Positions 10,530-31,607 of a stretch of 32,000 nucleotides of DNA are shown here, piece by piece; position 1 is the stretch's first letter, and every line of letters starts with the position of its first letter. The notes beneath the pieces were generated by a model. That model was not told the origin of the DNA, made no database searches, and saw only the letters and a program-made list of their open reading frames with translations. The position numbers and the translations under genes were made by a program. This DNA is from a bacterium (GTDB lineage: Bacteria > UBP7 > UBA6624 > JBBIMK01), in the NCBI GenBank assembly GCA_037444445.1, contig JBBIMK010000017.1:16103-48102 (forward strand), written 5' to 3'.

Positions 10530-11483
10530 TCAATGGAGAACCTGAAAACGCTGGAGTATTTCCACATCCGTAAGGGCAGGAGTGGAAGGAGAACTGGCGG
10601 GGCGGGGGTGGGCCTCTTTCCATAATCTCCAGGCATCCTGAAATGCCAGAGGATATGCCAGGTCCAGCCTGGCTGGTGCATAAAAATTTTTGAGGATGGC
10701 AAAGGTGAAATGAAGCCTTCGCAGGGAGGGTGAGGTAAGATTTTTCCAGTGGAAGAGCAATTGATTTCGGTAGAACAGGCGAAGACGGGTGGACCGGGGG
10801 AGGGAAGAAAGGGTCTGCCCACGCCGATGGTAGACCGGAGGGGTGGGGCAGTGGAGTACCCGCATTCCCTGTTGATATGCCCGGAAGGATAAATCCACAT
10901 CTTCCCAGTAGGCAGGGGAGTAGAGGAGGTCAAACCCGCCCAGGCGCTGAAAGGACTCTCTTCGCGTCAGGAAGCAGGCGCCCGTTGCCCAGGCTACTTC
11001 ATACGGCTTCCCGGGGATGAGAGGGGAGGGGTCGCCCTCCGCTACTCCCCACACAAACCCCTTCCTGAAGTGAAAGCCCGTGCGGGCTTCATCCGTTAGA
11101 TGCCGATTTTTATAAGTTAAAACGCCAGGGGTGGCGGCGAAAACATCCTCCGCTTCCAGCGCCTGAAATAAGGGTTCCAGAAAGGGATGGGTCAGTTCCA
11201 CATCATCATTGATGAAAAGAATGTAAGGGGAAGAGGAAGCCCGGACCCCGGCATTGCACCCCGCCCCGTAGCCACTCTTCCCCGAGTACACGACCTTCTG
11301 AATTTTTCCATCCAGCAAGCCCGATTTTGACACAGAAGCCCCCGCATCGGGAGAAGAATGATGGAGACAGATGAAAATAGATTCCACCCTCTCTTTCTTC
11401 AGAACAGAAAGAAGGGAGGAGGAAAGAAGGAGGGAACGCTCTAAGTTCTCTGTGGGGATGACAATGGAAACCGGTGGGGGCAA
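10530..11483 (-). CDS. family 2 glycosyltransferase
   Basis: VSIVIPTEN..., YGAGCNAG, ILFINDDVEL and WEDVDLSFR are GT2 hallmarks. TTG start lies 4 nt after the upstream stop and no ATG precedes the VSIVIPT strand. Confidence 0.8.
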   Translation of the reverse strand: MPPPVSIVIPTENLERSLLLSSSLLSVLKKERVESIFICLHHSSPDAGASVSKSGLLDGKIQKVVYSGKSGYGAGCNAGVRASSSPYILFINDDVELTHPFLEPLFQALEAEDVFAATPGVLTYKNRHLTDEARTGFHFRKGFVWGVAEGDPSPLIPGKPYEVAWATGACFLTRRESFQRLGGFDLLYSPAYWEDVDLSFRAYQQGMRVLHCPTPPVYHRRGQTLSSLPRSTRLRLFYRNQLLFHWKNLTSPSLRRLHFTFAILKNFYAPARLDLAYPLAFQDAWRLWKEAHPRPASSPSTPALTDVEILQRFQVLH

Positions 11484-15416: not shown

Positions 15417-17030
15417 TTACAGACTCCGCTGATAGGATGCGGGCTCGAGTTTCCACACAGGTATGCCACAGTAGCGTTCCCCTTCCGGGCAGAAGGGTCG
15501 CACACCGGCTAACTGGCGAACCCCGCAGGGGGGAAGCAGGTACCTTCCGATGCGGGGGTTCACCTCCTGTATCTGCAGAACCTCATTCAGGGAGGCTCGC
15601 CAGATTTCTTCCTGAGCGTTGTAGCACAAACGAAGCGTGTGCTTGTGCCAGAGATTCAGCAGGTCCGCCGTTTCCGTGAAGCGGATGGACACCGCATTGG
15701 GAAGAAGGTAACTCGCTTCCGCTACCCCCACACCCCTCTTTCGGAGAGAAAGGATTGCTTCCCAGACCCTCTCCATCGTCTCCTGATATAGCACTCGGGC
15801 TTCATCCCGCTTGAGAATAAGGTCGGGGGTAATATAATCGGGCTCTTCCGACAGATGGAACGACAGCAGGGGGCGGGATGCCGGTGTCATCCGATGCCTC
15901 TGGTCCTGAGAATCCGCCGTGTGAGACAGTTTCTTCCGAAAGGTCCAGGAAGGGTGAACCATTGCCCGGGAAAGCTTGGTCATGCTGGTGAGATTCAGGG
16001 ATTCTCCCAGATACCGGTTCTGAGAAGGGTCCATCACCAGCCGAATCGCTTCATCATCCGACATCGCCGACGAGGGTAGCCCCAGCACTTCCCGTACCGC
16101 CCGGGCTAACAGGATTTCATTCTCCGGTTTATAACTTACCAGTCTGGATACCTTCCCCTTCAGGCTTGCATCAAACTCCTCGCGGAAGGCTTTCTGATGT
16201 GGGTAAGCGGTAGCAGGCCACAGACAACCGGTTAGAGGCTGAAAAAAACGATACTCCGGGGTCTCTTCCAGAGGAATGGGCTCCTGTAGGATTTCTTGAT
16301 AAGAAGGGTCTGCTCGCAACAATTCGTCCCGCATCTTCTGAACCACCACCTTCTGCTCTACTGGCGCATCCAGTTGCTCACAAACCCGATGATACCGAAG
16401 CAAAGTGATGCCGTTAATCGTATGGTACATATAGGTAAAGGTGGCTACTGGAAGGAGATAACGGGCAATTTCTATGGCTTTTCTGTGAATCCCCCGACGC
16501 CACTTCCTGTTTTCCTGGCTACGCCCGGGAAAAATCTTAAAATATTCCGATTCTACCACGGGAAGTAACATTTCTGTCAGACGACGATACGCCTCCATCT
16601 GGAGGCGTATCGTGTCCTCATAGCGCCCCAGAGAATCCCCCTTCAAAGCCGGAATAAAATAGCTCCCGGGCTTCACTTCCACATACCGCTGGCTCACTTG
16701 TTCGGAATTGTAGAATGGATGACTGTGGAGGAAGGACCAGACGAAGTGACGGGAAATTTTATTGAGGGCAAACTGGAAGTGAGCATGCTGATAAACGGTA
16801 TGGTGCCCTGCCCGATAGATGTCCCGAGCCAGCCTGTTTCTCTTCTCTATGATGCTCTTTTTTTCTTCCGGCTCCTGCAGTTCATCCCCCGCCACCTCCT
16901 CCGGCGAGATTATCCCCCTGGAGGAGTAGCAGGTGCGAGCGGATGCGATGGCGAAATCAAACGGACGATAAAAACTATTCACCAGTATCACCTCCGGCTC
17001 GGGAGATAGAAATGAAGGCGTTTTCATCAT
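15417..17030 (-). CDS. thyX: ThyX-family (flavin-dependent thymidylate synthase-like) protein, tandem two-domain long form
   Basis: 537 aa. Half 1: GHHTVYQHAHFQFALNKISRHFVWSFLHSHPFYNSEQVSQRY. Half 2: HPSWTFRKKLSHTADSQDQRHRMTPASRP ... YLLPNAVSIRF ... RLCYNAQEEIW. Both resemble the ThyX core (HETPFEH..FTF..RHR..S..S.RY ... R....AQ.EI) as I recall it from T. maritima. Confidence 0.6.
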   Translation of the reverse strand: MMKTPSFLSPEPEVILVNSFYRPFDFAIASARTCYSSRGIISPEEVAGDELQEPEEKKSIIEKRNRLARDIYRAGHHTVYQHAHFQFALNKISRHFVWSFLHSHPFYNSEQVSQRYVEVKPGSYFIPALKGDSLGRYEDTIRLQMEAYRRLTEMLLPVVESEYFKIFPGRSQENRKWRRGIHRKAIEIARYLLPVATFTYMYHTINGITLLRYHRVCEQLDAPVEQKVVVQKMRDELLRADPSYQEILQEPIPLEETPEYRFFQPLTGCLWPATAYPHQKAFREEFDASLKGKVSRLVSYKPENEILLARAVREVLGLPSSAMSDDEAIRLVMDPSQNRYLGESLNLTSMTKLSRAMVHPSWTFRKKLSHTADSQDQRHRMTPASRPLLSFHLSEEPDYITPDLILKRDEARVLYQETMERVWEAILSLRKRGVGVAEASYLLPNAVSIRFTETADLLNLWHKHTLRLCYNAQEEIWRASLNEVLQIQEVNPRIGRYLLPPCGVRQLAGVRPFCPEGERYCGIPVWKLEPASYQRSL

Positions 17031-17721: not shown

Positions 17722-18660
17722 TTACTCTTTCGGCAGGGCTTCAAAATAAATACTACGGGTCTCCCACAGGAGAACTCGGCGAAGAACGACCCGGGTTTGA
17801 CCGGGTATTGAAAGGGCAGGCAATGCCTCCTTTATTCCCTGAAAGAGGTATCCTGCAATGTGCTCTCCCGTAGGATTATGGGTTTGAAAGTAGGGAACTT
17901 CCACATCCAGCCGTTTGTGGTCCAGTTCATTCAGTATCTTCTGAACGGTAGCATTTAGAGGGTCCAGGGGAACTCCCACTCCTGTTACGGGTGAGGGAAC
18001 CGCTTCCACTGTGGCTTCCAGAATATAATCGTGACCGTGGCCCTTCTCTCGCCCGCACTTCCCGAAAATTCGGAAATTTTGTGCAGAAGACAGATGGGGC
18101 GCCCACAGGCGATGCGCCGCAGAAAAACCATACTTCCTCGTAAGCCCTACCCCGCCAGGCTCCCTCTGGCTCCCCGCCTCCTTCCTCCCTCTTCCTTTCT
18201 CTAATATCCCTGCTTTTTCCTCCCCGTAATATTCCACATACAGGTCATCCGTTTCATAGAGTTTCAGCCGATGAAGGAAAATACCTCTGGGCAGTTTCTT
18301 TTCAATCTTTCCCCACAACACCTTGCAAAGATTCTCGGTAGTGGGCTGGATATTCTTAAAGTAGGGCGTTTCTTCGTTCAAAAACCGGTGGTCAAACTCC
18401 TCCAGAACCCGATTCACCAGGTTCTTCAACTCTGTCACATTGAGTATCATACCCGTCTCAGGATTCACAGGCCCGGACACCGTGACCTCTAACAGGTAGT
18501 TGTGTCCGTGTCCATACGGGCTCACACACTTCCCGAACACCCTTCGGTTCTTTTTTTCCGTCCACGCCGGATTCCAGTAACGATGGGAGGCGGAAAATTC
18601 AAACCGCCTGGTTAAGCAAATCTTCACATCAGGGGTTTCGGGTAGTTCCTTTCTTTTCAT
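17722..18660 (-). CDS. tandem-fused 6-pyruvoyl-tetrahydropterin synthase / QueD-family protein (two complete modules)
   Basis: Trimmed to ATG 18660 (MKRKELPE), 6 nt after the upstream stop. Module 1: FSASHRYW...FGKCVSPYGHGHNYLLEVTV...EFDHRFLNEE...LYETD. Module 2: FSAAHRLW...FGKCGREKGHGHDYILEATV...ELDHKRLD...LWET. Both are close to mammalian PTPS GKCNNPNGHGHNY...DHKNLD. Confidence 0.8.
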   Translation of the reverse strand: MKRKELPETPDVKICLTRRFEFSASHRYWNPAWTEKKNRRVFGKCVSPYGHGHNYLLEVTVSGPVNPETGMILNVTELKNLVNRVLEEFDHRFLNEETPYFKNIQPTTENLCKVLWGKIEKKLPRGIFLHRLKLYETDDLYVEYYGEEKAGILEKGRGRKEAGSQREPGGVGLTRKYGFSAAHRLWAPHLSSAQNFRIFGKCGREKGHGHDYILEATVEAVPSPVTGVGVPLDPLNATVQKILNELDHKRLDVEVPYFQTHNPTGEHIAGYLFQGIKEALPALSIPGQTRVVLRRVLLWETRSIYFEALPKE

Positions 18661-18665
18661 AAATT

Positions 18666-19556
18666 TTATCTTGCACTCTGCACCCTGCCACGGGCTATGT
18701 TCACTTCCACCTGATACCGGCGGTATGCCACCACAAACCCCCAATACAGGTTCATCGGAACCAGAAACATCCACAGGGCATAGTCGGGATGCCCTGCAAA
18801 AGCCCAGAGAGTGACCAGGAGGATTTGAAAACCGAGAGCCAGAGGGCTGACCAGGGTCAGGAAGGAAGGTGTAACCTCCCCGGGTGCGGAAACGCCCTCC
18901 ATTGTCGTCTTCTCCAGAAATTGCATCAGCCGGTCCTGCCAGCCGTAAATGATGGCATACAGCCGCTTCAAAAAAGAGAGTAGGTGAGGATTATCCCCGG
19001 TGAGAGCAAAATTTTCTGTTTCATCTACCCGGCTGGTGGTATCCCCCTCTGTCTGCTTCCGATACACCACGGAATAGTAGTTATAATAGGAACACTGAAG
19101 CGTAGCAAATAGCAGAGCCAGAAGGGCAAAAATCAGATGATGCGGGGCAATGGCAACAAAGACCAGCAGGTTAATGAAAAAATCGGCGAGGGAATCCAGA
19201 AATCGTCCAACGCGAGAAGGAGTTGAACGAGCCCTCGCCAGGGAGCCATCCACCGCATCCAGGAGATTTTTGACCTGTAAGATCATCGCGCCAGCCACCA
19301 TCCTTCCCCGCCCCCCTCCCCGAAGCCCCCCCGTAAAGAAACACCAGGCTGAGAGCACCCCGAACACGGTGTAGACCCCCGTCACCCACCGGGGGGAAAT
19401 GGGCGTGGGCAAGAGCCACCGCACCAGAAGAACCGCCGCAGGACGAGCATAATCGCTCAAGTCCAGAAAACGGGAGGATGGAGGCACTTTCGCCCACCTT
19501 TCCGCTCCCCTCTCTCCACCTTTCTCATCCATTGCTTCCCCTTCTTTTCCTGTCAT
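18666..19556 (-). CDS. CDP-alcohol phosphatidyltransferase family protein
   Basis: DAVDGSLARARSTPSRVGRFLDSLAD matches D-x2-DG-x2-AR-x8-G-x3-D-x3-D. It is a multi-TM protein. Confidence 0.8.
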   Translation of the reverse strand: MTGKEGEAMDEKGGERGAERWAKVPPSSRFLDLSDYARPAAVLLVRWLLPTPISPRWVTGVYTVFGVLSAWCFFTGGLRGGGRGRMVAGAMILQVKNLLDAVDGSLARARSTPSRVGRFLDSLADFFINLLVFVAIAPHHLIFALLALLFATLQCSYYNYYSVVYRKQTEGDTTSRVDETENFALTGDNPHLLSFLKRLYAIIYGWQDRLMQFLEKTTMEGVSAPGEVTPSFLTLVSPLALGFQILLVTLWAFAGHPDYALWMFLVPMNLYWGFVVAYRRYQVEVNIARGRVQSAR

Positions 19557-22562: not shown

Positions 22563-22591
22563 GGGGGCGTGGGAAAGTTTCCCACGCCCCC
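22563..22591 (-). terminator. GC-rich hairpin after the capsid gene (terminator-like, weak U-tract)
   Basis: A perfect 12-bp stem, GGGGGCGTGGGA (22563-22574) pairing TCCCACGCCCCC (22580-22591), with a 5-nt loop. It lies about 50 nt after the stop at 22644. The minus-strand tail is CCATTTAT, so there is no strong U run. Confidence 0.4.
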
Positions 22592-22643: not shown

Positions 22644-24164
22644 TTATACGCTGGATGCGATGTTGTAGCCGATGCCGACGATTTTTTGCGTGGAAGCGTC
22701 CAGCCGGTCCACAAACCCGATGCGCTGGCTCGCCACAATCTCAATGGTTCCCGTCTTGATGTCCCGAAATGCCTCAATGAAAGCCATCCGACGGTTCCCA
22801 TAAATGAATCCCCGACGATATACCAGAGCGAGGATGGTTTTGTTCGTGGTGATGCCGTCGTAGACGCCATTGGCGTTCAAATCCTCTCGCACATATTCGG
22901 AGACGATGATGGGGATGCCGTCCAGCCTTCCCAGTTCCCCGTTGAGAAGAGTCGCCCGGGCTCCGTATTTGTCCACCGTGAGAACCACAGGATTGCCGGC
23001 AGAGTCCTTCAGGTTCAACAACTGGATGTAGCCACCGATGGAAACCACCCATGCCAGGTCGTTCGGGTCCACGCCATAGATACCAAGAGCACCGCGAAGG
23101 GTGCGCATCTTCTCCACGGTGAGGGTGCCGAGAAAATCTATCCTGGCACCACTCAGGGCTTTCTTCCGATACCCCTTCCAGGCTTTCCTGACATCGGTGG
23201 CCTCGGTGACATCGGAGTCCATGTGGGATGCGGAGTCATCGCCATTGATGGTGGCGTTCTCTATGCCGGCAGCCAGGGCGGAAACGATGTCGCTCTTAAT
23301 GACCGGCAGGAGAGCGAAAACGGAATCTTCCTCCAGTTCATAGGAGACGGGGACGAAGACGGCGAGGGTTCTGGCATCCAACGAAGCCTGCCCGGTCCCC
23401 AGCGCCGAGGAGGGCGGAGCCACATTCTCACTCTTCAGATAGGCCGTGGAAAAACCGGTTTGCCTCGGGAGTTTGAACGGGTCTGTGGGCATAGAAAGGT
23501 GCTCGTGAAGGGAAGCCACCTTCAACTGGAGTCGGACTTTTTCCACCAGTTCTGGTGAGAAGCCGGTGGGAATCCACTCTGCGCCAGCCCCCGGTGTTCC
23601 CGTGTCCATCGCCTTTCCCAGTTCCTCCACCTGGCGCAGGTAATCCTCCCACTTCCGCAAAAGTTGCGGGGGCTTCCCGAGGAGTGCGGAGGCGATGTAA
23701 AGGTCATCCGCTGTCTGCTGAACCCGTTGAACCTGCGGGTTTTGTGAAGATTTCTGCAGAATCTCTCCCGGCTTCATCCCCCCATCAGGAGAATCGGAAA
23801 CGGGAAATCCTCCCTTCCGGACCAGTTTGCCCTTGAAACTCTCCTCATACTTCAGAAGAGCCTGTGTGATAAGTTTCTCACCCTCTTCAGGCGAGAGGTT
23901 GTCAGAGGCGGCTTTTCGGGCAGCTTCCGCCACCAGCCGTGCCCCTTCCTCTGCTGTCAATGCGTTCTCCATAATTGGATTCACCTCCTTGTGTGAGTTT
24001 TCAGGATTTTCAAATTCTAAATTTTGTATGTCTTTCTCTGTTCCCCGGTGCCGTTTCAACAGGAGAAATTTCCGACGGTTAGCGGGTGAGTCCACCAGGC
24101 TCACCTCCTGAACCAGAAACTTCAGAACCTTCCTTCCCTTCTTCCTGCTTCCCTCTTCCATCAT
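22644..24164 (-). CDS. HK97-fold phage major capsid protein homologue with N-terminal scaffold/delta-like extension (orphan)
   Basis: The C-terminal ~320 aa (TGTPGAGAEWIPTGFSPELVEKV...VPVSYELEEDSVFALLP...ENATINGDDS...) read like PF05065-type capsid proteins. The N-terminal ~190 aa are charged and helical and contain EVSLVDSPANRRKFLLLK. AGGAGG (24179-24174) lies 9 nt before ATG 24164. The track start at 24194 is a GTG 10 codons upstream. Confidence 0.8.
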   Translation of the reverse strand: MMEEGSRKKGRKVLKFLVQEVSLVDSPANRRKFLLLKRHRGTEKDIQNLEFENPENSHKEVNPIMENALTAEEGARLVAEAARKAASDNLSPEEGEKLITQALLKYEESFKGKLVRKGGFPVSDSPDGGMKPGEILQKSSQNPQVQRVQQTADDLYIASALLGKPPQLLRKWEDYLRQVEELGKAMDTGTPGAGAEWIPTGFSPELVEKVRLQLKVASLHEHLSMPTDPFKLPRQTGFSTAYLKSENVAPPSSALGTGQASLDARTLAVFVPVSYELEEDSVFALLPVIKSDIVSALAAGIENATINGDDSASHMDSDVTEATDVRKAWKGYRKKALSGARIDFLGTLTVEKMRTLRGALGIYGVDPNDLAWVVSIGGYIQLLNLKDSAGNPVVLTVDKYGARATLLNGELGRLDGIPIIVSEYVREDLNANGVYDGITTNKTILALVYRRGFIYGNRRMAFIEAFRDIKTGTIEIVASQRIGFVDRLDASTQKIVGIGYNIASSV

Positions 24165-24354
24165 TTTTTCCAACCTCCTGCTATCATCCATCACAAGGCT
24201 ATGCGAAAAGTTCAGGTGGAAGCGGGTTCACCCCCCTAGGAGAGAAGGAAGGCGGAGTAGGGAACCACCTGAAGCCGTCCGCCTGTCAATGGGTTAACTA
24301 CTCTCAATCTTGCCCCCAATCCTCCGGCAGACCTTTGTGCTGACGGCATACAAC

Positions 24355-24383
24355 TTGACATCTTCAGGGTTGTATATTATAGT
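24355..24383 (+). promoter_or_regulatory. sigma70-like promoter immediately upstream of direct-repeat copy 1
   Basis: TTGACA (24355-24360), a 17-nt spacer, then TATAGT (24378-24383). The repeat starts at 24386. Confidence 0.45.
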
Positions 24384-24385
24384 AG

Positions 24386-24481
24386 AATTGTCATGCGACA
24401 GCAGGAGATTGACGGTATTTATGAAATTCGCCAGATTGCAGGTGAAAGTGCTTCCCCGAGGGGGAAAATCGGAAGTGGTGG
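24386..24481 (+). repeat. direct repeat copy 1 (96 bp, identical to 25471-25566)
   Basis: Base-by-base comparison: aattgtcatgcgacagcaggagattgacggtatttatgaaattcgccagattgcaggtgaaagtgcttccccgagggggaaaatcggaagtggtgg is identical in both copies. Confidence 0.95.
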
Positions 24482-24504
24482 TGCAAGTAGGTGAGAAAAT
24501 ATGA
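24421..24504 (+). pseudogene. 5' fragment of the DUF167 gene (codons 1-20 duplicated, then 7 novel codons), acting as a 27-codon upstream ORF
   Basis: [20 protein letters not shown] is identical to the start of the intact DUF167 gene at 25506. It then reads VQVGEKI and stops. Stop TGA 24502-24504 overlaps ATG 24501-24503 of the next gene (ATGA). Confidence 0.6.
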
Positions 24505-24758
24505 ATGAAGAGGAAAAAGAGAAGAAGGGTAAGATTGCCCGAATAGAGAATTTCGGATACGGAATTATTGTAGATGAAGAAGGAAAGGAATACTTTTTCA
24601 CATTAGATAAGGTAGAAGGGTATCAGGGTCAAACCGTGCAAGCCCTCAGGTGGAAGAAAGGGAATCCCGTTCACTTTTCTATCCAGAATGGTAAAGTATC
24701 TTCCGTGAAAGTCCTGAAAAACTCTGACAAAGTGAAGGGATTAGTGATTGCCCCCTGA
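24501..24758 (+). CDS. small cold-shock-domain/OB-fold-like protein
   Basis: 85 aa with AGGTGA 6 nt upstream of the ATG. GKIARIENFGYGIIVDEEGKEYFF resembles the CSD RNP1/RNP2 arrangement (KGFGFI...VFVHF). It has an unusual acidic-lysine N-tail, MNEEEKEKKGK. Confidence 0.6.
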   Translation: MNEEEKEKKGKIARIENFGYGIIVDEEGKEYFFTLDKVEGYQGQTVQALRWKKGNPVHFSIQNGKVSSVKVLKNSDKVKGLVIAP

Positions 24759-25404
24759 CCCTTATCATTTCCTCGACCCCAGGAAGCCAGTTCACACACG
24801 AGAGATTCGCCCTGACAAGCCCTTGCCTCGCCATATTCGCAAATTTGGTTACCTGCCAGACGCAGGTTTCTTACTGCCAGGAGACCTGATTCTGGTTCAT
24901 AACCTGAAACTCCCTTACTTTTCTAAGGCTATTGTGAGTGCTCAGAGAAATGGAGGATATCAGGAAGAAGATGCCAGATGGCATCATGCGGCAGTGTACA
25001 TAGACGGCTATCTAATTTGTGAGGCTCAACTTTCTGGGGTAAAGACGGATTACCTTTATCAATACATTCCTACCCATTTGATTCGTATCAGGCGTGATGT
25101 ATCTCTTCTGCCGGATGACAGATGGAAAATCGTTGTAAACGCCTTGAGGAAACTTCGTGAGCCATACGGATTCCGGTCCATTGTAGCCCTCTATTGGCAA
25201 AGCAAAATTGGATTCTGGAGGCCAATTCTGAGGTTTGGATATACCCGTGGAGTCATCTGCTCTCAGCTTTACGCGGAAGCCTACTCACTGGTAACCCACC
25301 GGCTGCTTGTTCCTGGAACCCTCGGGCGTCCAACCCCTGCGGATTTGAGTTTAACACCGGTATTGACAGATATTCCCATAGATTGGATAAAACTCCAGGT
25401 TTGA
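24748..25404 (+). CDS. permuted papain-like (NlpC/P60 superfamily, YiiX/YaeF-type) hydrolase
   Basis: 218 aa with a TTG start, the only start after an in-frame TGA, and GAAGGGA upstream. It overlaps the previous gene by 11 nt. Motif order PGDLILV..SKAIV..WHHAAVYI..ICEA..REPYGF..VICSQLYAEAY parallels E. coli YiiX (TGDIIFQ..SKAIQ..YSHTGMLV..VFEA..GKPYDF..YCSEVVWKVY). No signal peptide. Confidence 0.65.
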   Translation: MPPDPYHFLDPRKPVHTREIRPDKPLPRHIRKFGYLPDAGFLLPGDLILVHNLKLPYFSKAIVSAQRNGGYQEEDARWHHAAVYIDGYLICEAQLSGVKTDYLYQYIPTHLIRIRRDVSLLPDDRWKIVVNALRKLREPYGFRSIVALYWQSKIGFWRPILRFGYTRGVICSQLYAEAYSLVTHRLLVPGTLGRPTPADLSLTPVLTDIPIDWIKLQV

Positions 25405-25439
25405 TGTCTTCTCATACTGTATGTGGTTTTCTGAAAGAT

Positions 25440-25473
25440 TTGACAATACGCCTGGAATGTGCTACTTTATAAT
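25440..25473 (+). promoter_or_regulatory. promoter candidate upstream of direct-repeat copy 2 / DUF167-ileS
   Basis: TTGACA (25440-25445), a 17-nt spacer, then TACTTT. A perfect TATAAT also sits at 25468-25473. The TTGACA ends exactly 25 nt before the repeat, as in copy 1. Confidence 0.35.
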
Positions 25474-25566
25474 TGTCATGCGACAGCAGGAGATTGACGG
25501 TATTTATGAAATTCGCCAGATTGCAGGTGAAAGTGCTTCCCCGAGGGGGAAAATCGGAAGTGGTGG
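25471..25566 (+). repeat. direct repeat copy 2 (96 bp, identical to 24386-24481)
   Basis: See copy 1. This copy runs into the full-length DUF167 gene. Confidence 0.95.
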
Positions 25567-25784
25567 GCTACCGGGATGGAATCCTCACCATCAGAGTTAA
25601 CGCTCCTGCTGAACGCGGTAAAGCCAATTCGGAGTTAATTCGCTTCCTCCATCGGCGCCTGAGAGTCTCTCCTCAAATCCTTCGTGGTGAATTCTCCCGG
25701 CATAAAGTTCTGACCATTCCAGACCTGACCCTTTCGGAAGTCTTAAAACTTCTGAATATACCCCACACATCCCGGGAGGGATAA
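25506..25784 (+). CDS. DUF167 (YggU-like) family protein
   Basis: 92 aa from ATG 25506. [44 protein letters not shown] parallels E. coli YggU LRLYIQPKASRDSIVG...[22 protein letters not shown]. The track start at 25473 is an upstream TTG. Confidence 0.8.
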
Positions 25785-25786
25785 AG

Positions 25787-28711
25787 ATGCTTACGGATTA
25801 CAAGAAGACCTTGAACTTGCCGAAGACAGAATTTGCCATGCGAGGGAACCTGGTGAAGCGGGAGCCGAAACTGATTGCCTTCTGGCAGGAAATCGGTCTG
25901 TATGAAAAAATCATCCAATTGAGGGAAAATGCACGCAAAGAACACAAAATCTTTATCCTTCACGATGGACCCCCTTATGCCAACGGCGACATCCATGCTG
26001 GCCATGTCCTGAATAAAGTTCTCAAGGACATCGTGGTCAAGTTCCGCCTGATGCAGGGGTTTTATTCTCCTTATGTGCCCGGCTGGGACACCCATGGCTT
26101 GCCCACCGAGCAGGAAGTCATTAAGAAATTCGGATTAGACAGAAAAGCGGTCTCTCCCTTACAGTGGCGGAGAAAATGCAAGGACTTCGCTGAGATGTAT
26201 GTGGAACGCCAGCGAGAGCAATTCATCCGCCTCGCCTGCCTCGGCGACTGGAAGAATCCTTACCTCACCTACGACCCCGCTTATGAAGCCAGAGAAATAG
26301 AAATCTTAGGAACGCTGGGTGAAAAAAATCTCCTGTATCGGAAGAAGAAACCCATCTACTGGTGCGCCGGTTGTGAAACCGCCCTCGCTGAGGCAGAGAT
26401 TGAATATGAAGATGTGCCTTCCCCCTCCATTTATGTGGCTCTCCCGCTGGAATTACCTTTGCGATTGGAAGCCCGGGGTAGTGTTCCCGCCTCATTCGTC
26501 ATCTGGACCACGACGCCCTGGACCCTGCCAGCCAATCTGGCTGTTGCCCTTCATCCCTCTGCCAGTTATTCCCTCTACCACACGGAAAAAGGGAATTTTA
26601 TTGTGGCAGATGCCCGATGGCAGGAGTTCTCTGAAAAAGCGGGCATCCCAATTTGGGAAAAGTGGATGTCCTGGAATGGAAGCCACCTGAAAACCCTTCG
26701 GTATTTCCATCCAGTTGTGGGTAATCCCCAATCTAAAAGGCTGGGGCTTCCTGAGATTTTTCAAGAAATGAAAAAATATCCTGAACTTTTTCGTGAAAAA
26801 TATCCTGAACTTTTTGAGAAAGAATATACCGGAACTATCCAGCAAGTCATTACTTCCGAGATGGTGGATTTGTCCACGGGCACAGGGATAGTTCATATCG
26901 CCCCGGGGCACGGGGAAGAAGATTATCACATCGGGCTGGAAAATAACCTGCCTGTCTTCTCCCCCCTGGATGATGAAGGGAAATTCACCCTTCCCGCTGG
27001 CACTGGCTTTGATTTCATAGATGGGAAATTTTACGAGGATGCAAACCCCTTGATTTTAGACAGGCTGAGGGAGGCGGGAAACTTACTCCATCAGGAAGAA
27101 ATCATTCACTCTTATCCCCACTGCTGGCGGTGTAAAAAAGCGGTGATTTTCCGTGCCACCCCCCAGTGGTTTTTAGATATAGACAAAATACGGGACGCCC
27201 TGATTCAGGGTGCAGAAGCCATTCAATGGCATCCTGCCTGGGGGAAGGAGAGGCAGGTGAATATGCTGAAAGAGCGCCCGGATTGGTGTCTCTCCCGCCA
27301 GCGAGTGTGGGGCGTTCCTCTTCCTGTTTTCTACTGCCAGTCTTGCCGGATGCCCATTCTCTCCACAGCCAGTGTTGCCCGCCTGGTGGAACGGGTTCGC
27401 CAGCGCGGGGTGGATGTGTGGTGGCAAGAACCAGCAAAAGAACTGTTGCCTGCCGGGTTCATCTGCCCTCATTGTGGCGGTGAAAACTTTGAGAAGGAGA
27501 AGGACATCGTGGATGTCTGGTTTGATTCCGGCGTCTCCCACTTCGCTGTCCTCCAGCAGAGGCAGGAACTCCGCTGGCCCTGCGAGTTATACCTGGAGGG
27601 CACCGACCAGTATCGGGGATGGTTCCAGACCTCGCTGACCACTGCCGTAGCGGTGGCGGATACCCCCCAGACCCGCCAGGTCCTCACCCACGGCTTCGTC
27701 GTGGACGAAGAAGGCAGAAAAATGTCCAAATCCCTTGGAAATGTCGTTGACCCACAGGAGGTCCTGAAGTCCTTCGGCGCCGAAATCCTCCGCCTCTGGA
27801 CCGTTTCCTCTGACTTCACCTCCGATGTAAAAATCTCCCCCGAAATCCTTTCCAAAGTCGCTGACGGATACCGCAAAATTCGGAATACCTTCCGCTTCCT
27901 CCTCGGCAATCTATATGACTTTGATACCTCCCTCCTCCTCCCTTACGAAGAACTCCGAGAAGTTGACCGGTGGGCGCTTCATTCTCTTTCCCATCGGATT
28001 CGTCAGTTGACCGAGCAGTATGAAAATTACCAGTTTGATGCCGTTTTTCGCACTCTCTACCAATACTGCACCGTAGACCTGTCCTCCTTTTATCTGGACA
28101 TATTGAAGGACCGATTATACACCTTTCCCGCAGATTCCAGCGCCCGTCGCTCCGCCCAAACCGCTTTTTACCACATTCTCAATGCCCTGCTCCGGCTCAG
28201 CGCTCCCATCCTTTCCTTCACGGCGGAGGAAGCCTGGCAGGCTTTTGGTGCGAATCAAGAGCGCCCCTCCAGCGTTTTCCTCGCGAATTTCCCCACTCCA
28301 CAGCCGGATTGGGAAGACAGCCGATTGGAAAGCCGTTGGAACACCCTTCTTTCCCATCGGTCACGTGTCAACCGAGCCCTGGAGCAGGCAAAAAATCAGG
28401 GCTGGATTCGTTCCCCTATGGAGGCTTTTATCACCCTCTACGCCGATGAAAACCAGGAAGCATTCCTCCGCTCCTTCTCCCCGCAAGAACTGGAAGAGGT
28501 TTTCAACACTTCTGGTGTGAGGGTGGAGCCTTTGAAAGCCCTCCAGGAAGAAATGATTGAGTCGGAAACGAGAGAAGAAGGTGTGGTGGTGAGTGTGGAG
28601 CGGAGTGCAGGCGAAAAATGCGCCCGATGCTGGAAACGCTACCGCTCCGTAGGACTGAATCCGGCTTACCCAGACCTCTGCCATCGCTGCATCTCCTGCC
28701 TCACCACCTGA
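25787..28711 (+). CDS. ileS: isoleucine--tRNA ligase
   Basis: 974 aa with [12 protein letters not shown] (HIGH), KMSKS, a CP1 editing region and a C-terminal CARCW...CHRCISC zinc knuckle. The ATG lies 2 nt after the DUF167 stop, with a GGGAGGG RBS. Confidence 0.95.
26772..26819 (+). repeat. in-frame 24-bp tandem duplication inside ileS
   Basis: aaaaatatcctgaacttttt occurs at 26772-26791 and again at 26796-26815, with period 24. It encodes [16 protein letters not shown]. Confidence 0.9.
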
Positions 28712-28727
28712 ACCAATCTTCTTCCGG

Positions 28728-29621
28728 GTGATGTGTTACAATGCCAGAGGGATGAAAGCCGGGAAGGAATTGATTGAAAGAGCCCTGGCGGAAGACCGAG
28801 TCCGGCAGGATAAAACCTCCTTCGCTCTCTTCCCGGAAGAACATCACAGTGTGGCTTTTCTGATAGCCGGCGCCACCGGCGTGCTATCGGGAATGGAGGT
28901 GGCCAGGCAGGTATTCCAGGCAGTGGATAGAAACATCCAATTCCAGGCATTCAGAAGAGATGGAGAATCGGTCAGAAAGGGCCTGAAGATTGCCCGACTG
29001 AAGGGGAGAACACGAAGCCTTTTATCCGCAGAACGAGTGGCACTGAACTTCCTGATGCACCTGTCGGGAATCGCCACTCTCACGGCGAAGTTTGTTAAAG
29101 TCCTACAGGGAACTCCTGTCATCCTTCTGGATACCCGTAAGACCTTACCCGGCTTACGCATGCTGGAGAAATACGCTGTCCGCTGTGGCGGGGGCAAAAA
29201 TCATCGGATGAACCTCGCTGAGGCTATCCTCCTGAAATCCAACCATATTCGGGCTTTCGGCTCCATTTCCGATGCGGTTATGCTGGCACGAAAAAAATAT
29301 CCCCGAATGTGGATTGAGGTGGAAGTGCAGAACCTGAAGGAATTTCAGGAAGCCCTGAAAACATCCGCCGACCGCATTATGCTGGATAATTTTTCCCTCC
29401 CCTGCCTGCGAAAAGCGGTTGCGCTCAGCCGAAAAAGAACCCCGGCAAATCCCATACCCCTGGAGGCTTCCGGTGGAGTCACCCTGAAGAACGCTCGTCG
29501 CATGGCACGCATCGGGGTGAATTTCATTTCCGCAGGCGTTCTCACCCACTCCGCACCCGCCTTGAATATCTGTATGAAAATCGTCAGAGGAAAGGCTTCA
29601 CCCTCTCTGTCAATGAGGTGA
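28728..29621 (+). CDS. nadC: nicotinate-nucleotide pyrophosphorylase (quinolinate phosphoribosyltransferase)
   Basis: AERVALNFLMHLSGIATLT, LDTRKTLPGLRMLEKYAVRCGGGKNHR and IMLDNF are NadC signatures. The start is ambiguous between GTG 28728, ATG 28731 and ATG 28752. Confidence 0.9.
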   Translation: MMCYNARGMKAGKELIERALAEDRVRQDKTSFALFPEEHHSVAFLIAGATGVLSGMEVARQVFQAVDRNIQFQAFRRDGESVRKGLKIARLKGRTRSLLSAERVALNFLMHLSGIATLTAKFVKVLQGTPVILLDTRKTLPGLRMLEKYAVRCGGGKNHRMNLAEAILLKSNHIRAFGSISDAVMLARKKYPRMWIEVEVQNLKEFQEALKTSADRIMLDNFSLPCLRKAVALSRKRTPANPIPLEASGGVTLKNARRMARIGVNFISAGVLTHSAPALNICMKIVRGKASPSLSMR

Positions 29622-29628
29622 TTTTCTG

Positions 29629-30531
29629 ATGAGAAAATGGTTTGAGTGTGTGCCCAATGTGAGCGAAGGAAGACGACCGGAGGTGATTCGGGAAATCCAG
29701 AATGCTATCCAATCAGTGAAAGGAATTAAACTTCTGGATGTGGAGTCGGACAGCGACCACAATCGGAGTGTATTCACTTTCGCCGGCCCGAAAGAGCCGG
29801 TCAAGGAAGCAGTATATCAACTGGTGGACATAGCCATCCGGCGTATTGACCTGCGAGAGCATAAAGGGGAACATCCAAGGATTGGTGCGGTGGATGTGAT
29901 TCCCTTCGTCCCTCTCTGGGATGCCACCGTAGAAGAAGCCATTGTTCTGGCGAAAGAAGTGGGCGAGCATCTGGCGAACACCTACTCTTTGCCCATCTAT
30001 TTCTACGAGGATGCAGCCTCAGCACCCCATCGTCGTAACTTATCGGACATCCGACAGGGGGAGTTTGAAGGGCTGGCAGAGAAGATGAAAAAGCCAGAGT
30101 GGAAGCCAGACGCAGGGCCTGAAGAACCGCACCCCACTGCCGGCGCTACCGTCGTGGGCGCCCGTTTCTTCCTCATCGCCTATAACATCTACCTCGGCAC
30201 CACCGATGTGTCCATCGCCAGGAAGATTGCACGGGCAATCCGGGCTTCCGATGGTGGATTCGCTTATGTAAAAGCCCTCGGCTTTGAAATCAAACAACGG
30301 AATCTGGTTCAGGTGAGCATGAACCTGGTGGACTACCGAAGAAGCCCAATGCACCGCGTCTTTGAACTGGTTCGCCTGGAGGCGGAACGATACGGCGTTC
30401 CCATCGTTTCCTCAGAAATCGTGGGCCTGGTCCCTCTGGATGCCATTGTCGCCGCCGCCGACCACTTCCTCCGACTGGAAAATTTCTCCAAAAAGCAAAT
30501 CTTAGACTTTCAACTGCTAAAAAATGAATAA
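29629..30531 (+). CDS. ftcD: glutamate formimidoyltransferase (FTCD N-terminal-type)
   Basis: MRKWFECVPNVSEGRRPEVI is the hallmark N-terminus of formiminotransferases. 300 aa, with GAGGTGA 8 nt upstream. Confidence 0.85.
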   Translation: MRKWFECVPNVSEGRRPEVIREIQNAIQSVKGIKLLDVESDSDHNRSVFTFAGPKEPVKEAVYQLVDIAIRRIDLREHKGEHPRIGAVDVIPFVPLWDATVEEAIVLAKEVGEHLANTYSLPIYFYEDAASAPHRRNLSDIRQGEFEGLAEKMKKPEWKPDAGPEEPHPTAGATVVGARFFLIAYNIYLGTTDVSIARKIARAIRASDGGFAYVKALGFEIKQRNLVQVSMNLVDYRRSPMHRVFELVRLEAERYGVPIVSSEIVGLVPLDAIVAAADHFLRLENFSKKQILDFQLLKNE

Positions 30532-30569
30532 CGGAATGGCTTCCGAGTATAATAAAACTGGAGGCAAAG

Positions 30570-30947
30570 TTGGCGGTCATTGAAAAGAAGATAGAGTTAG
30601 CAGGCTCCCGTGGAAAGGAAGAGGTGGTTGCCCTTTTTGATTCCAGTGCCACCTATTCCTGCATCCAGCCCGAACTGGCAGAAAAACTGGAAATGACAAC
30701 CCCCTTGCCAGAGCCGATGGAATTCGGAACCGCAGAAACAGAAAAGAAGGTCACCGCTTGCCATCGGGTGGTTTTGAACTTCTACCTCAATGGTTATCTT
30801 TTCTCCGATGAATTTATGATTATTCCAAACCTGTCAGAGCCTGTGAATACCGGTGTCGCTACCCTGCAGAAGTGGCGGATAAAACTGGATTTTGAGAACG
30901 ACGAGGTCATCATTGACCCGAGAGTCACCAAACTCCACCTCCTCTAA
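30570..30947 (+). CDS. small retropepsin-like (clan AA) aspartic-protease-fold protein, DSS variant
   Basis: 125 aa with a TTG start 5 nt after GGAGG. VVALFDSSATYSCIQPELAEKL and GVATLQKWRIKLDFEN match the layout of single-domain retropepsin-like proteins, but the D-T/S-G triad reads D-S-S. Confidence 0.5.
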   Translation: MAVIEKKIELAGSRGKEEVVALFDSSATYSCIQPELAEKLEMTTPLPEPMEFGTAETEKKVTACHRVVLNFYLNGYLFSDEFMIIPNLSEPVNTGVATLQKWRIKLDFENDEVIIDPRVTKLHLL

Positions 30948-31028
30948 CTGGTTACCAGTTACCGGATGCCTGTTGCCAGTGGAAGTCCCTTCTCTTCCTA
31001 CAAGTCTTGTAAAAGGAGGATTGGAAAG

Positions 31029-31607
31029 ATGGACTTAGAAGCATACCTGAAGGATTTATCCTCTTCATCGCCGGCACCTGGCGGTGGGAGTGCATCTGCC
31101 CTTACGGGCGCCATCGCCGCTTCTTTGAACTCTATGGTGGCTTCCATCACGGCGAAGAAAAAGCCAGAACTGGAGGAAATCGGTCAAAAAGCCCGTGACA
31201 TTCGTGATGACCTCTTACGCTTAATGGAGCAGGACACCTCCGCATTCCTCTCTTTGATGAAAGCGTTCAAAGAAAAGAACGAATCCGAGATAGCCCACCG
31301 GGTGAAAGAAGCGGCTACCGTTCCCCTAACCACTGCGGAGAAATCCCTTCAGGCTCTCGTGCTGGCAGTGGAACTTCTCCAGAAAGGTTCTAAAAGCGTC
31401 TTCACTGACTCTGCGGGAGCGGGGTTCTTAGCCTGGGCCGCCGTCCGCTCCGCCCTCCTTAATGTCCTCATCAACCTCCCCTCTATGAAAGACGAAGCCC
31501 TGAAGGCTCATCTAAAAGAGAAAACAAACGCCTGCATCCGAAAATCCGATGAACTCCTCCAGGAAGTGATTCAACAATCGGAGGCTTTCTTCGCCCCGAA
31601 AACTTGA
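31029..31607 (+). CDS. formiminotetrahydrofolate cyclodeaminase (FTCD C-terminal-type)
   Basis: Trimmed to ATG 31029, with AAGGAGG upstream. LEAYLKDLSSSSPAPGGGSASALTGAIAASLNSMVA is the cyclodeaminase/FchA-family signature. Confidence 0.85.
   Translation: MDLEAYLKDLSSSSPAPGGGSASALTGAIAASLNSMVASITAKKKPELEEIGQKARDIRDDLLRLMEQDTSAFLSLMKAFKEKNESEIAHRVKEAATVPLTTAEKSLQALVLAVELLQKGSKSVFTDSAGAGFLAWAAVRSALLNVLINLPSMKDEALKAHLKEKTNACIRKSDELLQEVIQQSEAFFAPKT

Follow-up and report, generated by a model that had tools for sequence, protein, structure and literature searches.

The window, that is, the whole 32,000-nucleotide stretch of bacterial DNA that was analysed, carries on its minus strand one gene for a predicted HK97-fold major capsid protein (MCP). 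The gene lies between a convergent GH gene and yggU-ileS and has no operon partner. The features of the locus are the following:

22644 to 24194, minus strand: capsid open reading frame (ORF) as first listed, from the upstream GTG 24194; basis of the 516-residue numbering
22644 to 24164, minus strand: capsid gene with the likeliest translation, from the first start; 506 amino acids plus stop
24165 to 24194, minus strand: 5' leader, ten in-frame codons from GTG 24194 to the ATG, delimited by sequence and by alignment with protease-capsid fusions
24051 to 24164, minus strand: putative remnant of a protease C-terminus, codons 1–38, from alignment with the fusions
23973 to 24050, minus strand: predicted disordered linker, codons 39–64 (AlphaFold2 pLDDT below 50 for residues 1–65)
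23610 to 23972, minus strand: internal ATG, Met65 (23970–23972), and delta/scaffold-like helical domain, residues 65 to ~185
22647 to 23609, minus strand: predicted HK97-fold body with N-arm, E-loop, spine helix (279–307) and A and P domains
22563 to 22591, minus strand: GC-rich hairpin with perfect 14-bp arms and a 1-nt centre, 53 nt past the stop codon

The initial annotation described the gene as an orphan in a housekeeping neighbourhood, and this description holds. All genes recognised in the 22 kb of one flank and the 8 kb of the other are cellular, the neighbours being GH, ThyX, FolE, PTPS, YggU, IleRS, NadC and similar genes. Those other window ORFs of at least 100 residues that were scanned with Pfam and PHROG are cellular or unassigned, and the 32 kb examined contain no tRNA gene and no phage gene besides the capsid gene. 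Searches with Pfam, PHROG and tblastn detected no portal, terminase, protease or head-tail adaptor gene next to the MCP gene, as a functional head module would contain, and an intact prophage was rejected on these grounds. The conserved head cluster of GTAs, consisting of terminase, portal, protease, MCP, adaptor and tail genes, was not encountered within the 32-kb window either, and the GTA reading was rejected. Repeats resembling att sites around the capsid gene are short and at chance level, an Rfam scan of the flanks gave no match, and the codon usage and GC3 of the gene are near the host range.

The true start of the gene is most likely ATG 24164, which gives a protein of 506 residues that is 100% identical to the database protein P0001, and not GTG 24194. 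The locus is also present in a sister strain (L076, in SRR11582170) from a separate sample and assembly, in which the same truncated 5' end of the capsid gene adjoins yggU-ileS at 95–96% identity; the agreement of the two assemblies spans the yggU-ileS side only, from the start of the capsid gene across the intergenic stretch. Because a 1-nt deletion throws the upstream GTG out of frame in L076, it was excluded as the start. The AGGAGG ribosome-binding site (RBS) at 24174–24179, retained in L076, was correctly noticed at the outset, but it serves ATG 24164, which it precedes by 9 nt, and not GTG 24194. The leader codons derive from a protease: their DDSRRLEK is aligned to DDALWREI in the fusions. 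Inside the linker, at 23981–23990, lies another Shine-Dalgarno site, AAGGAGGTGA. In the alignment, Met65 takes the position at which the stand-alone MCPs of the clade start, and initiation there would yield a protein of 442 residues. The fusion gene of L001 contains GGAGGTGA-N6-ATG at the equivalent site, and the RBS and ATG pair at Met65 is the ancestral nested MCP start. The hairpin, which had been taken as a sign of expression, is real and found nowhere else in the window (z = -2.9 for the 91-nt region), but it has no T-tract after it and was not called as an intrinsic terminator, and no sigma-70-type promoter was detected on the strand of the capsid gene. The ORF is free of the internal stops and frameshifts of a pseudogene, yet it is truly shorter at the 5' end than the ancestral fusion, and the gene is intact as an MCP but not as the fusion gene from which it derives.

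The product of the ORF is a predicted HK97-fold MCP, nearest to pb8 of phage T5. Its C-terminal ~290 residues (208–494 in the 516-residue numbering) match PF05065 (E=1.4e-16, 61.2 bits against a cut-off of 24.2), and TIGR01554 (major_cap_HK97) matches with 76.8 bits (cut-off 27.5). PF04454 (Linocin_M18) gave no match in the protein, and the matches to PHROG 10 and 617 begin ~205–250 positions into fusion-length profiles. The AlphaFold2 model has a pLDDT of 81, a pTM of 0.71 and 271 residues at 90 or above; the body, mostly above 90, displays the N-arm, E-loop, spine helix and P and A domains of the HK97 fold. The Foldseek search proposed in the initial annotation found this fold, with probability 1.0 to the capsid proteins of T5/DT57C, RcGTA and HK97. 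The matches include HK97 Prohead I structures (8fqk and 3qpr) and, significant but low at rank 49, a mycobacterial encapsulin (8wol). The T5/DT57C protein pb8 (PDB 8ho3, 8zvi, 5tjt) is both the best fold match (E=6.5e-16) and the best sequence-profile match (E=1.7e-33), and is likewise an HK97-fold MCP whose precursor carries a scaffold domain at the N-terminus. However, the two proteins are only 20–22% identical, and pb8 is served by a separate protease, a portal and a terminase, all missing from the window locus. The N-terminal helices of the model (71–113 and 143–185, pLDDT 84–92) belong to a region homologous to the N-terminus of the stand-alone clade MCPs and to part of the delta region of the pb8 precursor, to which the family profile aligns from residue 61. 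The C-terminal HK97/PF05065-type capsid protein noted initially is supported by Pfam, TIGR01554, the model and Foldseek, and the delta/scaffold-like extension by these two homologies.

The nearest relatives (P0002–P0004) are PF14550+PF05065 fusions of ~710 residues, to which the window protein is 60–61% identical overall and 65–67% over the MCP core. In the alignment, the window protein begins inside the last ~15 residues of the S78_2 protease core, the end of which was set by Pfam (residue 235 in P0002). Only ~6–9 residues of the core end (MMEEG) are left, and PF14550 gave no match in the window protein even at E≤1. In all, ~215 N-terminal residues of the fusions are missing, comprising the whole protease body and the GFSMGG strand. 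The post-core strand EVSLVDSPANRRKF is kept in codons 1–38, and the motif FLVQEVSLVDSPANRRKF aligns with the strand directly after the S78_2/S78 protease core in relatives; in P0051 and in the proteases of L009 and L011 it likewise comes after the core. The suggestion that this opening motif comes from a prohead protease that has lost its body is thus confirmed by the alignment and by tblastn, which finds no body. The order of post-protease strand, linker, delta domain and MCP is that of the fusions, and tblastn covers fusion residue ~245 to the end. The fusions P0002 ('bacterium JZ-2024 1') and P0003 (PHROG 10 and 617) share with the window gene the post-protease EVSLVDxPAxxR strand, the linker, the delta region and the nested RBS and ATG. 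The fusions in L001 and L007 are followed by an adaptor (HCP) gene and a gene for 341–344 residues, whereas the window gene is without both, and tblastn of the window with module proteins found no remnants of the protease body, adaptor or tail genes.

More distant relatives are found in phages. The MCPs of four head modules from IMG/VR (L012, L013, L015 and L017) are 45–57% identical to the window protein (53–57% in L012, L013 and L015) and are accompanied by a protease of the same S78_2 family. They are stand-alone genes placed after portal, Mu-F and protease genes (TerL was seen in L015) and before adaptor and tail genes. Because the relatives with 53–57% identity occupy complete TerL-portal-MuF-protease-MCP head modules on viral contigs, the gene is almost certainly a phage relic by origin. 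The occurrence of relatives in complete head modules had been named beforehand as an argument against a domesticated shell; it supports the phage origin, and a dead prophage of which this is the last gene to survive, as had been suggested, is the right account of where this truncated S78_2 protease-MCP fusion came from. Chromosomal copies form a graded series, with at least 8 module genes in L007, 3 in L001 and part of one in the window. Portal-less protease-MCP-adaptor islands recur in several candidate phyla; divergent portals may escape the in-house portal HMM, and negatives were cross-checked with Pfam for L001, L007, L009, L011, L081, L082, L086, L087 and L093 only. Scans of JGI metagenomes with an exact 32-mer and a protein query returned nothing closer than 39% identity. 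The adjacent GH gene, used as a synteny anchor in species-representative genomes, gave 91 pattern matches and no relative. The IleRS neighbourhoods of the 59–63% relatives are not syntenic, and therefore no orthologous empty site can be defined.

We propose that the gene is the only piece left of an integrated phage-like element with a head gene in which an S78_2 (XkdF-type) prohead protease was fused to a T5/HK97-type MCP. A deletion took the protease body and everything upstream, and whatever followed the stop codon, such as the head-tail adaptor gene, is lost as well. Left over are the C-terminal stub of the protease, the linker that is predicted to be disordered, the delta/scaffold domain and the HK97-fold body in full, with two persisting RBS and ATG pairs, one at the stub (506 residues) and one at the ancestral nested MCP start (442 residues).

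The main reading is that this phage relic is maintained by selection, to which we assign a probability of roughly 0.55. The strongest alternative, unlikely but serious, is that the gene is the last fragment of a dead prophage that has not yet acquired a disabling mutation and brings the cell no benefit. Such a neutral relic would explain the 5' truncation with a useless protease stub, the loss of all partner genes, the want of a detectable promoter and canonical terminator, and the stepwise decay that such elements show in relatives. The window strain and L076 have a pooled dS of 0.099. Changes in IleRS polarise 11:8 between the two lineages, each of which has accumulated ~0.05 substitutions per site. 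The truncation is older than the strain split, yet none of the 75 family-conserved positions has been altered since, against ~8.4 replacements expected under neutrality (P=2e-4, or 0.002–0.003 at looser thresholds); the test assumes a near-equal share of divergence per lineage, and P rises to 0.18 if the window lineage took 10%. An intact ORF of 1518 nt would have a neutral probability of 0.07 without indels and 0.003 at an indel:substitution ratio of 0.05. The first 115 nt, covering codons 1–38, are identical in the two strains (P=1e-5 to 1e-4 under neutral divergence), and the cores of both RBSs are retained. The branch of the window protein does not exceed those of the fusion sisters in length, and the protein deviates from the consensus at no more positions than its module-borne relatives. 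These observations uphold the initial impression that the gene has been maintained rather than decayed.

The linker, codons 39–64, is the sole directly comparable stretch past codon 38, and it evolves at a neutral-like rate, with five non-synonymous and one synonymous difference between the strains. Over the 64 codons available from the sister allele, dN/dS is ~1.4, calculated from 6 changes. Because the comparison with the sister allele spans these 64 codons, selection on the MCP body was inferred indirectly, from family conservation; against the 60% relatives, synonymous sites are saturated. The evidence from conserved residues is drawn from two strains only, and the thinness of this comparison favours a neutral relic. 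On balance, the truncated gene appears from the sequence comparisons to have been kept by purifying selection since the strains diverged and therefore to have been exapted. Domesticated genes of defective prophages are reported by Bobay, Touchon and Rocha (PNAS 2014, cited through PMC6379469) to persist by vertical descent with signs of purifying selection. The window gene would resemble them in both respects, but it is a single truncated structural gene and not a multi-gene remnant.

What a selected capsid gene might do is limited by its missing protease. Its delta domain could not be removed, and therefore the product would, from established HK97 biology, get no further than capsomers or prohead-I-like shells incapable of maturation. 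The gp5 protein of HK97 builds Prohead I on its own, and the confident HK97-fold model and the intact delta-like domain suggest that the window protein may be competent to assemble. T5-type MCPs reportedly need a protease and a portal for correct procapsid assembly, a finding attributed to Huet et al. in 2016; this requirement weighs against a relic with a function.

It is conceivable, although somewhat doubtful, that the cell keeps a lone capsid precursor without a protease for its own benefit, either as a decoy or as a new delta-domain shell that belongs to none of the four encapsulin families. In that case the hyper-conserved peptide which the protease tail has left at the N-terminus would have a function as a module, for instance in targeting capsids or in preventing cleavage, instead of being debris, and the portal-less protease-MCP-adaptor islands that recur elsewhere would be kindred elements, exapted in part. 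As the likeliest mechanism, although with low confidence, we speculate that the protein acts as a dominant-negative decoy, an uncleavable precursor that would co-assemble with the capsid protein of related phages and poison head assembly or maturation. Its targets would be related infecting phages; such elements occur in genomes of relatives of the host. Fv1 and enJS56A1 are capsid-derived restriction factors of animals, both of Gag origin. The analogy with them is functional only, with no homology: the product of a defective capsid gene residing in the genome could enter the assembly of related viruses and thereby block them. We know of no bacterial counterpart of such restriction, and the capsid protein matched no family among the defence-system models of PADLOC-DB.

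Next after a decoy we rank a cargo-bearing shell, an improbable reading in which the protein would assemble by itself into a closed, encapsulin-like nanocompartment and sequester an enzyme cargo whose gene lies elsewhere. In its favour, the HK97-fold gene stands alone, has no phage context and appears to be under selection, and the assembly of HK97 gp5 on its own, together with the Prohead I structures and the mycobacterial encapsulin among the fold matches, is consistent with it. However, the closest relatives are bona fide phage MCPs (53–61% identity), and the retained delta domain would fill the lumen. To our knowledge, no described encapsulin family has been reported to have a delta domain. 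A conserved cargo gene next to the capsid gene is also missing. The initial annotation had proposed the adjacent OB-like and YiiX-like ORFs (85 and 218 residues) as cargo; both are strain-specific, lying on a 1085-bp compositionally foreign segment that is absent from L076 and flanked by a 99-nt (k-mer-length) duplication 190 nt from the capsid gene. Family 1 encapsulins are recognised by a PF04454 shell protein and an adjacent cargo with a targeting peptide; neither a PF04454 match nor a conserved adjacent gene was found. The suggestion of a Family 3-type encapsulin did not survive either. Family 3 encapsulins share with the window protein the HK97 fold, a PF05065-type sequence, the absence of nearby phage genes, as observed at the window locus, and a presumed origin in prophage-capsid domestication. 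These 'natural product encapsulins' are, however, defined by being embedded in natural-product clusters (NRPS/PKS, sulfotransferase, SDR, AmCP) (Andreas & Giessen 2021, PMC8346489), and the candidate was rejected since no biosynthetic cluster surrounds the window gene. The locus further differs from them in having no candidate cargo or targeting peptide and an unrelated host lineage, and the window protein, unlike Family 3 encapsulins, keeps a delta domain and a protease stub.

Still less probable is that the gene continues to serve a phage-like element scattered over the genome, GTA-like or helper-dependent, with its portal, terminase, protease and tail genes at other sites. Continued capsid production is the simplest account of selection on an MCP, portal-less head islands of the clade recur in other genomes, and one of the best fold matches is to the RcGTA capsid protein. 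Against this, the gene itself has lost the protease that should process the delta domain, and the adaptor gene, which comes after the MCP in all related islands, is missing here. The protein database contains no second closely related capsid protein from the same organism, and the 32 kb examined offer no other phage gene. A fragment of a phage contig mis-joined into the host contig, which the metagenome-assembled source and the suspicious duplication beside the foreign segment could suggest, is hardly credible, since the independent L076 assembly repeats the junction of capsid 5' end, intergenic region, yggU and ileS and the composition of the capsid gene is close to that of the host.

The gene is probably a phage leftover put to some use and not a recognised encapsulin. 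Encapsulins are thought to have been derived by the domestication of prophage capsid genes, and intermediate stages are seldom caught. If selection on the window gene fails to hold, the gene would be an ordinary prophage scar and a warning that PF05065 outside a phage context is insufficient to name an encapsulin. If selection holds, the locus would be a snapshot of capsid exaptation under way in a deep uncultivated lineage, with the phage origin plainly traceable in the truncated fusion, the nested start still present and the loss of every partner gene. It would then provide a tractable one-gene test case, with two possible N-termini, for deciding between a compartment and an anti-phage decoy.

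The product of the minus-strand capsid gene belongs to the HK97-type major capsid proteins (MCPs). It matches PF05065 (E=1.4e-16; 61 bits against the Pfam cut-off of 24), TIGR01554 major_cap_HK97 (76.8 against 27.5 bits) and the PHROG major-head-protein families 10 and 617. An AlphaFold2 model calculated from an alignment of 43 homologues (mean pLDDT 81, pTM 0.71) predicts disorder in residues 1–65, followed by helical segments 71–113 and 143–185 and a body modelled at high confidence. When the modelled body was submitted to Foldseek, as the initial annotation had suggested, the HK97-fold capsid proteins of T5/DT57C (E=6.5e-16), RcGTA and HK97 were recovered, all with a probability of 1.0. The family sequence profile matches the T5/DT57C pb8 precursor (E=1.7e-33), and the alignment extends into the N-terminal delta region. 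Both the HK97 assignment of the C-terminal part and the description of the N-terminal extension as helix-prone and similar to a delta or scaffold domain are therefore borne out. Identity to named phages is 25–30% at most. The features of the locus are:

22644–24194, minus strand: capsid ORF present in the sequence
24174–24179, minus strand: AGGAGG ribosome-binding site, 9 nt ahead of ATG 24164
23981–23990, minus strand: second Shine-Dalgarno site, AAGGAGGTGA, preceding the internal ATG
23970–23972, minus strand: internal ATG (Met65), aligned with the start of the 420–430-residue stand-alone MCPs of the clade
24383–25566 including repeats: segment of 1085 bp, carrying the two following ORFs
24501–24758: 85-residue ORF, OB/cold-shock-like
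24748–25404: 218-residue ORF

Judging from its alignments, the window gene is a truncated protease-MCP fusion. Apart from P0001, its own database entry, the nearest database proteins are 60–61% identical, ~710 residues long, and carry PF14550 (Peptidase_S78_2, XkdF-type) ahead of PF05065. The alignment starts with RLEKMMEEG of the window protein opposite LWREIEEGK of the fusion, the fusion segment ITGFSMGGYIW is missing from the window protein, and the alignment picks up again at FLVQEVSLVDSPANRRKF opposite ILLEEISLVDKPAVNRTF. Since the S78_2 core of the fusion P0002 (residues 121–235 in Pfam) ends at residue 235, the window protein retains ~9 residues of the core end and the following strand. 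The same strand stands behind the protease core in L009 (a stand-alone S78_2 protease), L011 and P0051 (S78 proteases), which bears out the earlier linking of the N-terminal motif to prohead-protease/XkdF-type proteins. In a tblastn search of the window, the queries came from two related elements and comprised the fusion, the adaptor, the 341- and 344-residue proteins, the PKD protein, the lysin and flanking proteins. Only fusion residues ~245 to the end were recovered, so the protease body is absent, as had been noticed, and no other remnant of these elements was found. The window retains ~70% of the fusion gene and no other element gene.

The phage-relic origin of the gene is secure. In IMG/VR, 64 loci matched the family alignment; for the four best, the genes upstream of the MCP were analysed by Pfam. 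L012, L013 and L015 encode a portal (PF04860) there together with a Mu-F domain, L012, L013 and L017 encode an S78_2 protease, and L015 additionally encodes TerL. With profiles from module genes, a portal was located 2–5 kb upstream in nearly all viral contigs with at least 4 kb of upstream sequence. These portal-bearing contigs identify the clade as a genuine tailed-phage MCP lineage. The truncated fusion, its relatives in viral portal/protease modules and the lack of other remnants in the window uphold, as to origin, the proposal that this is the last surviving gene of a dead prophage. Among chromosomal relatives, L007 and L008 contain the fusion, then an adaptor (HCP), a 344-residue protein, a PKD protein and a glucosaminidase. 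L001–L006 of 'bacterium JZ-2024 1' contain only the fusion, HCP and a 341-residue protein amid cytochrome and other cellular genes. There is no synteny among these loci, or between any of them and the window, which points to independent integrations at different decay stages.

The isoleucyl-tRNA synthetase (IleRS; ileS 25787–28711) shows the host to be a deep lineage without classification. Its closest matches come from a sister strain (97%, Logan contig), the assembly GCA_900175145, also home of the L008 fusion (63%), and 'bacterium JZ-2024 1', the MAG to which L003 belongs (59%); all others are at most 54% identical. The capsid protein is 65–67% identical to two relatives, which are 84% identical to each other. 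Across the same lineages, IleRS identities are 59–63% to the window and 71% between the relatives, slightly below the capsid values and with the same topology. This agreement fits phages tracking this host group. The host carries LPS-transport genes (diderm-type) and has a GC content of ~53%.

All neighbours with a family match in the window are cellular: DapB, Lpt, two M16 peptidases, GT2, GT4, PLD-like, ThyX, FolE, PTPS, CDP-alcohol transferase and a convergent 840-residue glycoside hydrolase (GH) on one side, and YggU, IleRS, NadC and FTCD on the other. No structural-phage PHROG match was found among unannotated window ORFs, no tRNA in the window, no Rfam match in the gene flanks and no att-like repeats around the capsid gene, which confirms the initial observation of an orphan capsid gene among housekeeping genes. 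The strong hairpin reported after the stop codon is present (22563–22591), but it has no T-tract, and no sigma-70-type promoter was seen on the gene's strand. Two neighbouring ORFs, thyX (15417–17030, 537 residues, two Thy1 matches) and PTPS (17722–18774, 350 residues, two PTPS matches), appear to be tandem-duplicated or fused forms of normally single-domain enzymes. A further ORF, orf125 (30570–30947, 125 residues), is retropepsin-like with a weak Asp_protease_2/gag-asp match; its dN/dS between the two strains is ~1, compared with 0.09–0.28 for its neighbours.

The sister strain is represented by L076 (Logan SRR11582170), an independent contig from another sample, which aligns to window 23971–24481 at 95% and 25468–31280 at 96.4%. 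In L076, the loss of one nucleotide between GTG 24194 and the ATG shifts the GTG out of the reading frame, whereas the AGGAGG and ATG are retained. The start is therefore ATG 24164, giving 506 residues, the same as P0001; the AGGAGG site of the initial annotation is real, but it does not serve a start at 24194. In the L001 fusion gene (about 10800–10900), GGAGGTGA lies 6 nt ahead of an ATG equivalent to Met65, and its core is conserved in L076, so the nested MCP start is ancestral. A 442-residue product from Met65 is, on these signals, as plausible as the 506-residue one. In the fusion ORFs, the internal Shine-Dalgarno site and ATG fall precisely where the MCP portion begins, which suggests nested translation yielding little fusion protein and much free MCP, similar to nested scaffold/protease genes of other phages.

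Conserved sites, relative rate and strain comparison say that the gene is not decaying, and of these the strain comparison tells most. At none of the 75 alignment columns with at least 90% agreement among the other 42 family members does the window protein depart from the consensus; the family median is three deviations, and the nearest relatives in module contexts have 0–2. Three-point branch lengths, from sequences picked by similarity to the query, are 0.16–0.23 for the window and 0.22–0.30 for the fusion sisters, the window branch never being meaningfully longer. The truncated 5′ end and yggU junction are common to both strains; therefore, the truncation is older than their split. The shared 5.8 kb of host genes has a pooled dS of 0.099 and dN/dS of 0.09–0.28, and the intergenic spacer differs by 7.8%. 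Outgroup-polarised IleRS differences (11 on the window lineage, 8 on the sister) indicate ~0.05 substitutions per site on each. Neutrality would predict ~8.4 replacements over the 171 non-synonymous sites of the 75 conserved codons, and none was observed (P=2e-4; 0.002–0.003 at 80% and 70% conservation thresholds), a test that presumes a roughly equal split and gives P=0.18 if the window lineage carries just 10% of the divergence. A neutral 1518-nt ORF would still be open with a probability of 0.07 if nonsense mutations alone are counted, falling to 0.003 once indels are included at an indel:substitution ratio of 0.05. In GC3 (0.66) and codon usage, the gene lies at the margin of the range of host genes.

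The sister-allele comparison covers 64 codons, all outside the MCP body. Over its first 115 nt (24051–24164, the remnant of the protease tail), the coding sequence is 100% identical between the strains, whereas neutral sites differ by 8–10%; such identity has a probability of roughly 1e-5 to 1e-4 if divergence is neutral and of 0.016 at average coding divergence. A functional N-peptide or a leader RNA may account for this conservation, or it may be due to chance. Of the six changes in linker codons 45–63, five are non-synonymous and one is synonymous, a neutral-like rate. On this thin sampling, we give a probability of roughly 0.6 that the gene is maintained by selection. A neutral relic is a strong, though less likely, rival. 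The earlier description of the gene as intact stands for the open frame, the conserved residues and the branch length, but not for the 5′ end, truncated relative to the fusions.

The window gene has kept its delta domain and HK97 body and has lost the protease; its two start signals are conserved, and the truncated gene occurs in two strains. An HK97-type MCP precursor with an uncleavable delta domain can form at most capsomers or prohead-I-like shells, and T5-type proteins reportedly require protease and portal for correct assembly. The activity we hold most likely, tentatively, is that the product would co-assemble with the capsid protein of related phages and thereby interfere with their head assembly.

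A cargo-bearing shell ranks next and is unlikely. The adjacent OB-like and YiiX-like ORFs, proposed as cargo, lie on the 1085-bp segment, which is flanked by 99-nt direct repeats (24383–24481 and 25468–25566, 98/99 identical), has a GC3 of 0.45 compared with 0.53–0.64 in host genes and is missing from the 96%-identical L076. The capsid gene therefore has no conserved partner in either ORF. The repeat is a copy of the yggU promoter and 5′ end, and 99 is a common assembler k-mer length; the segment arose either by recent insertion with duplication of the target or as an artefact of the assembler. The encapsulin label does not apply. Family 3 encapsulins are not simply PF05065 genes outside phage contexts, as had been assumed, but PF05065-annotated shell proteins within natural-product biosynthetic clusters of Actinobacteria and Proteobacteria (PMC8346489), and such a cluster is absent at the window locus. 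PF04454 of Family 1 is not matched by the window protein, and no PADLOC model matches it. Readings as a gene transfer agent or an intact prophage fail because no other module gene is present in the window.

Several uncultivated phyla (JZ-2024 1, Hydrogenedentota, Poribacteria, Abyssobacteria and Dehalococcoidia) have genomes or MAGs in which compact islands around MCPs of the clade recur:

L009/L010: 8857–16184
L011: 6311–12870
L001: 10001–13736
L082: 9057–18309
further islands: L081, L085, L086, L087, L090 and L093

They contain a protease, the MCP, usually a head-tail adaptor and sometimes a ~350-residue protein and large PKD or Laminin_G proteins. The upstream gene, where identifiable, is cellular or belongs to restriction-modification, and the L009 island has type III Cmr genes on one side and cas4-cas2-cas1 on the other. 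No portal or TerL was found within 8–10 kb of the islands, whereas the clade's viral contigs carry both. A dispersed active element is a still fainter prospect for the window gene. An assembly artefact is very improbable, since L076 independently confirms the yggU-side junction of this MAG-derived locus, a confirmation that covers that side and not the GH side.

Bobay et al. reportedly found in 2014 that defective-prophage genes are kept under purifying selection. The phenomenon has been reviewed (PMC8987985) and is mentioned in PMC6379469, and we file the window gene with such genes. The islands may be decay products, satellites or exapted modules.
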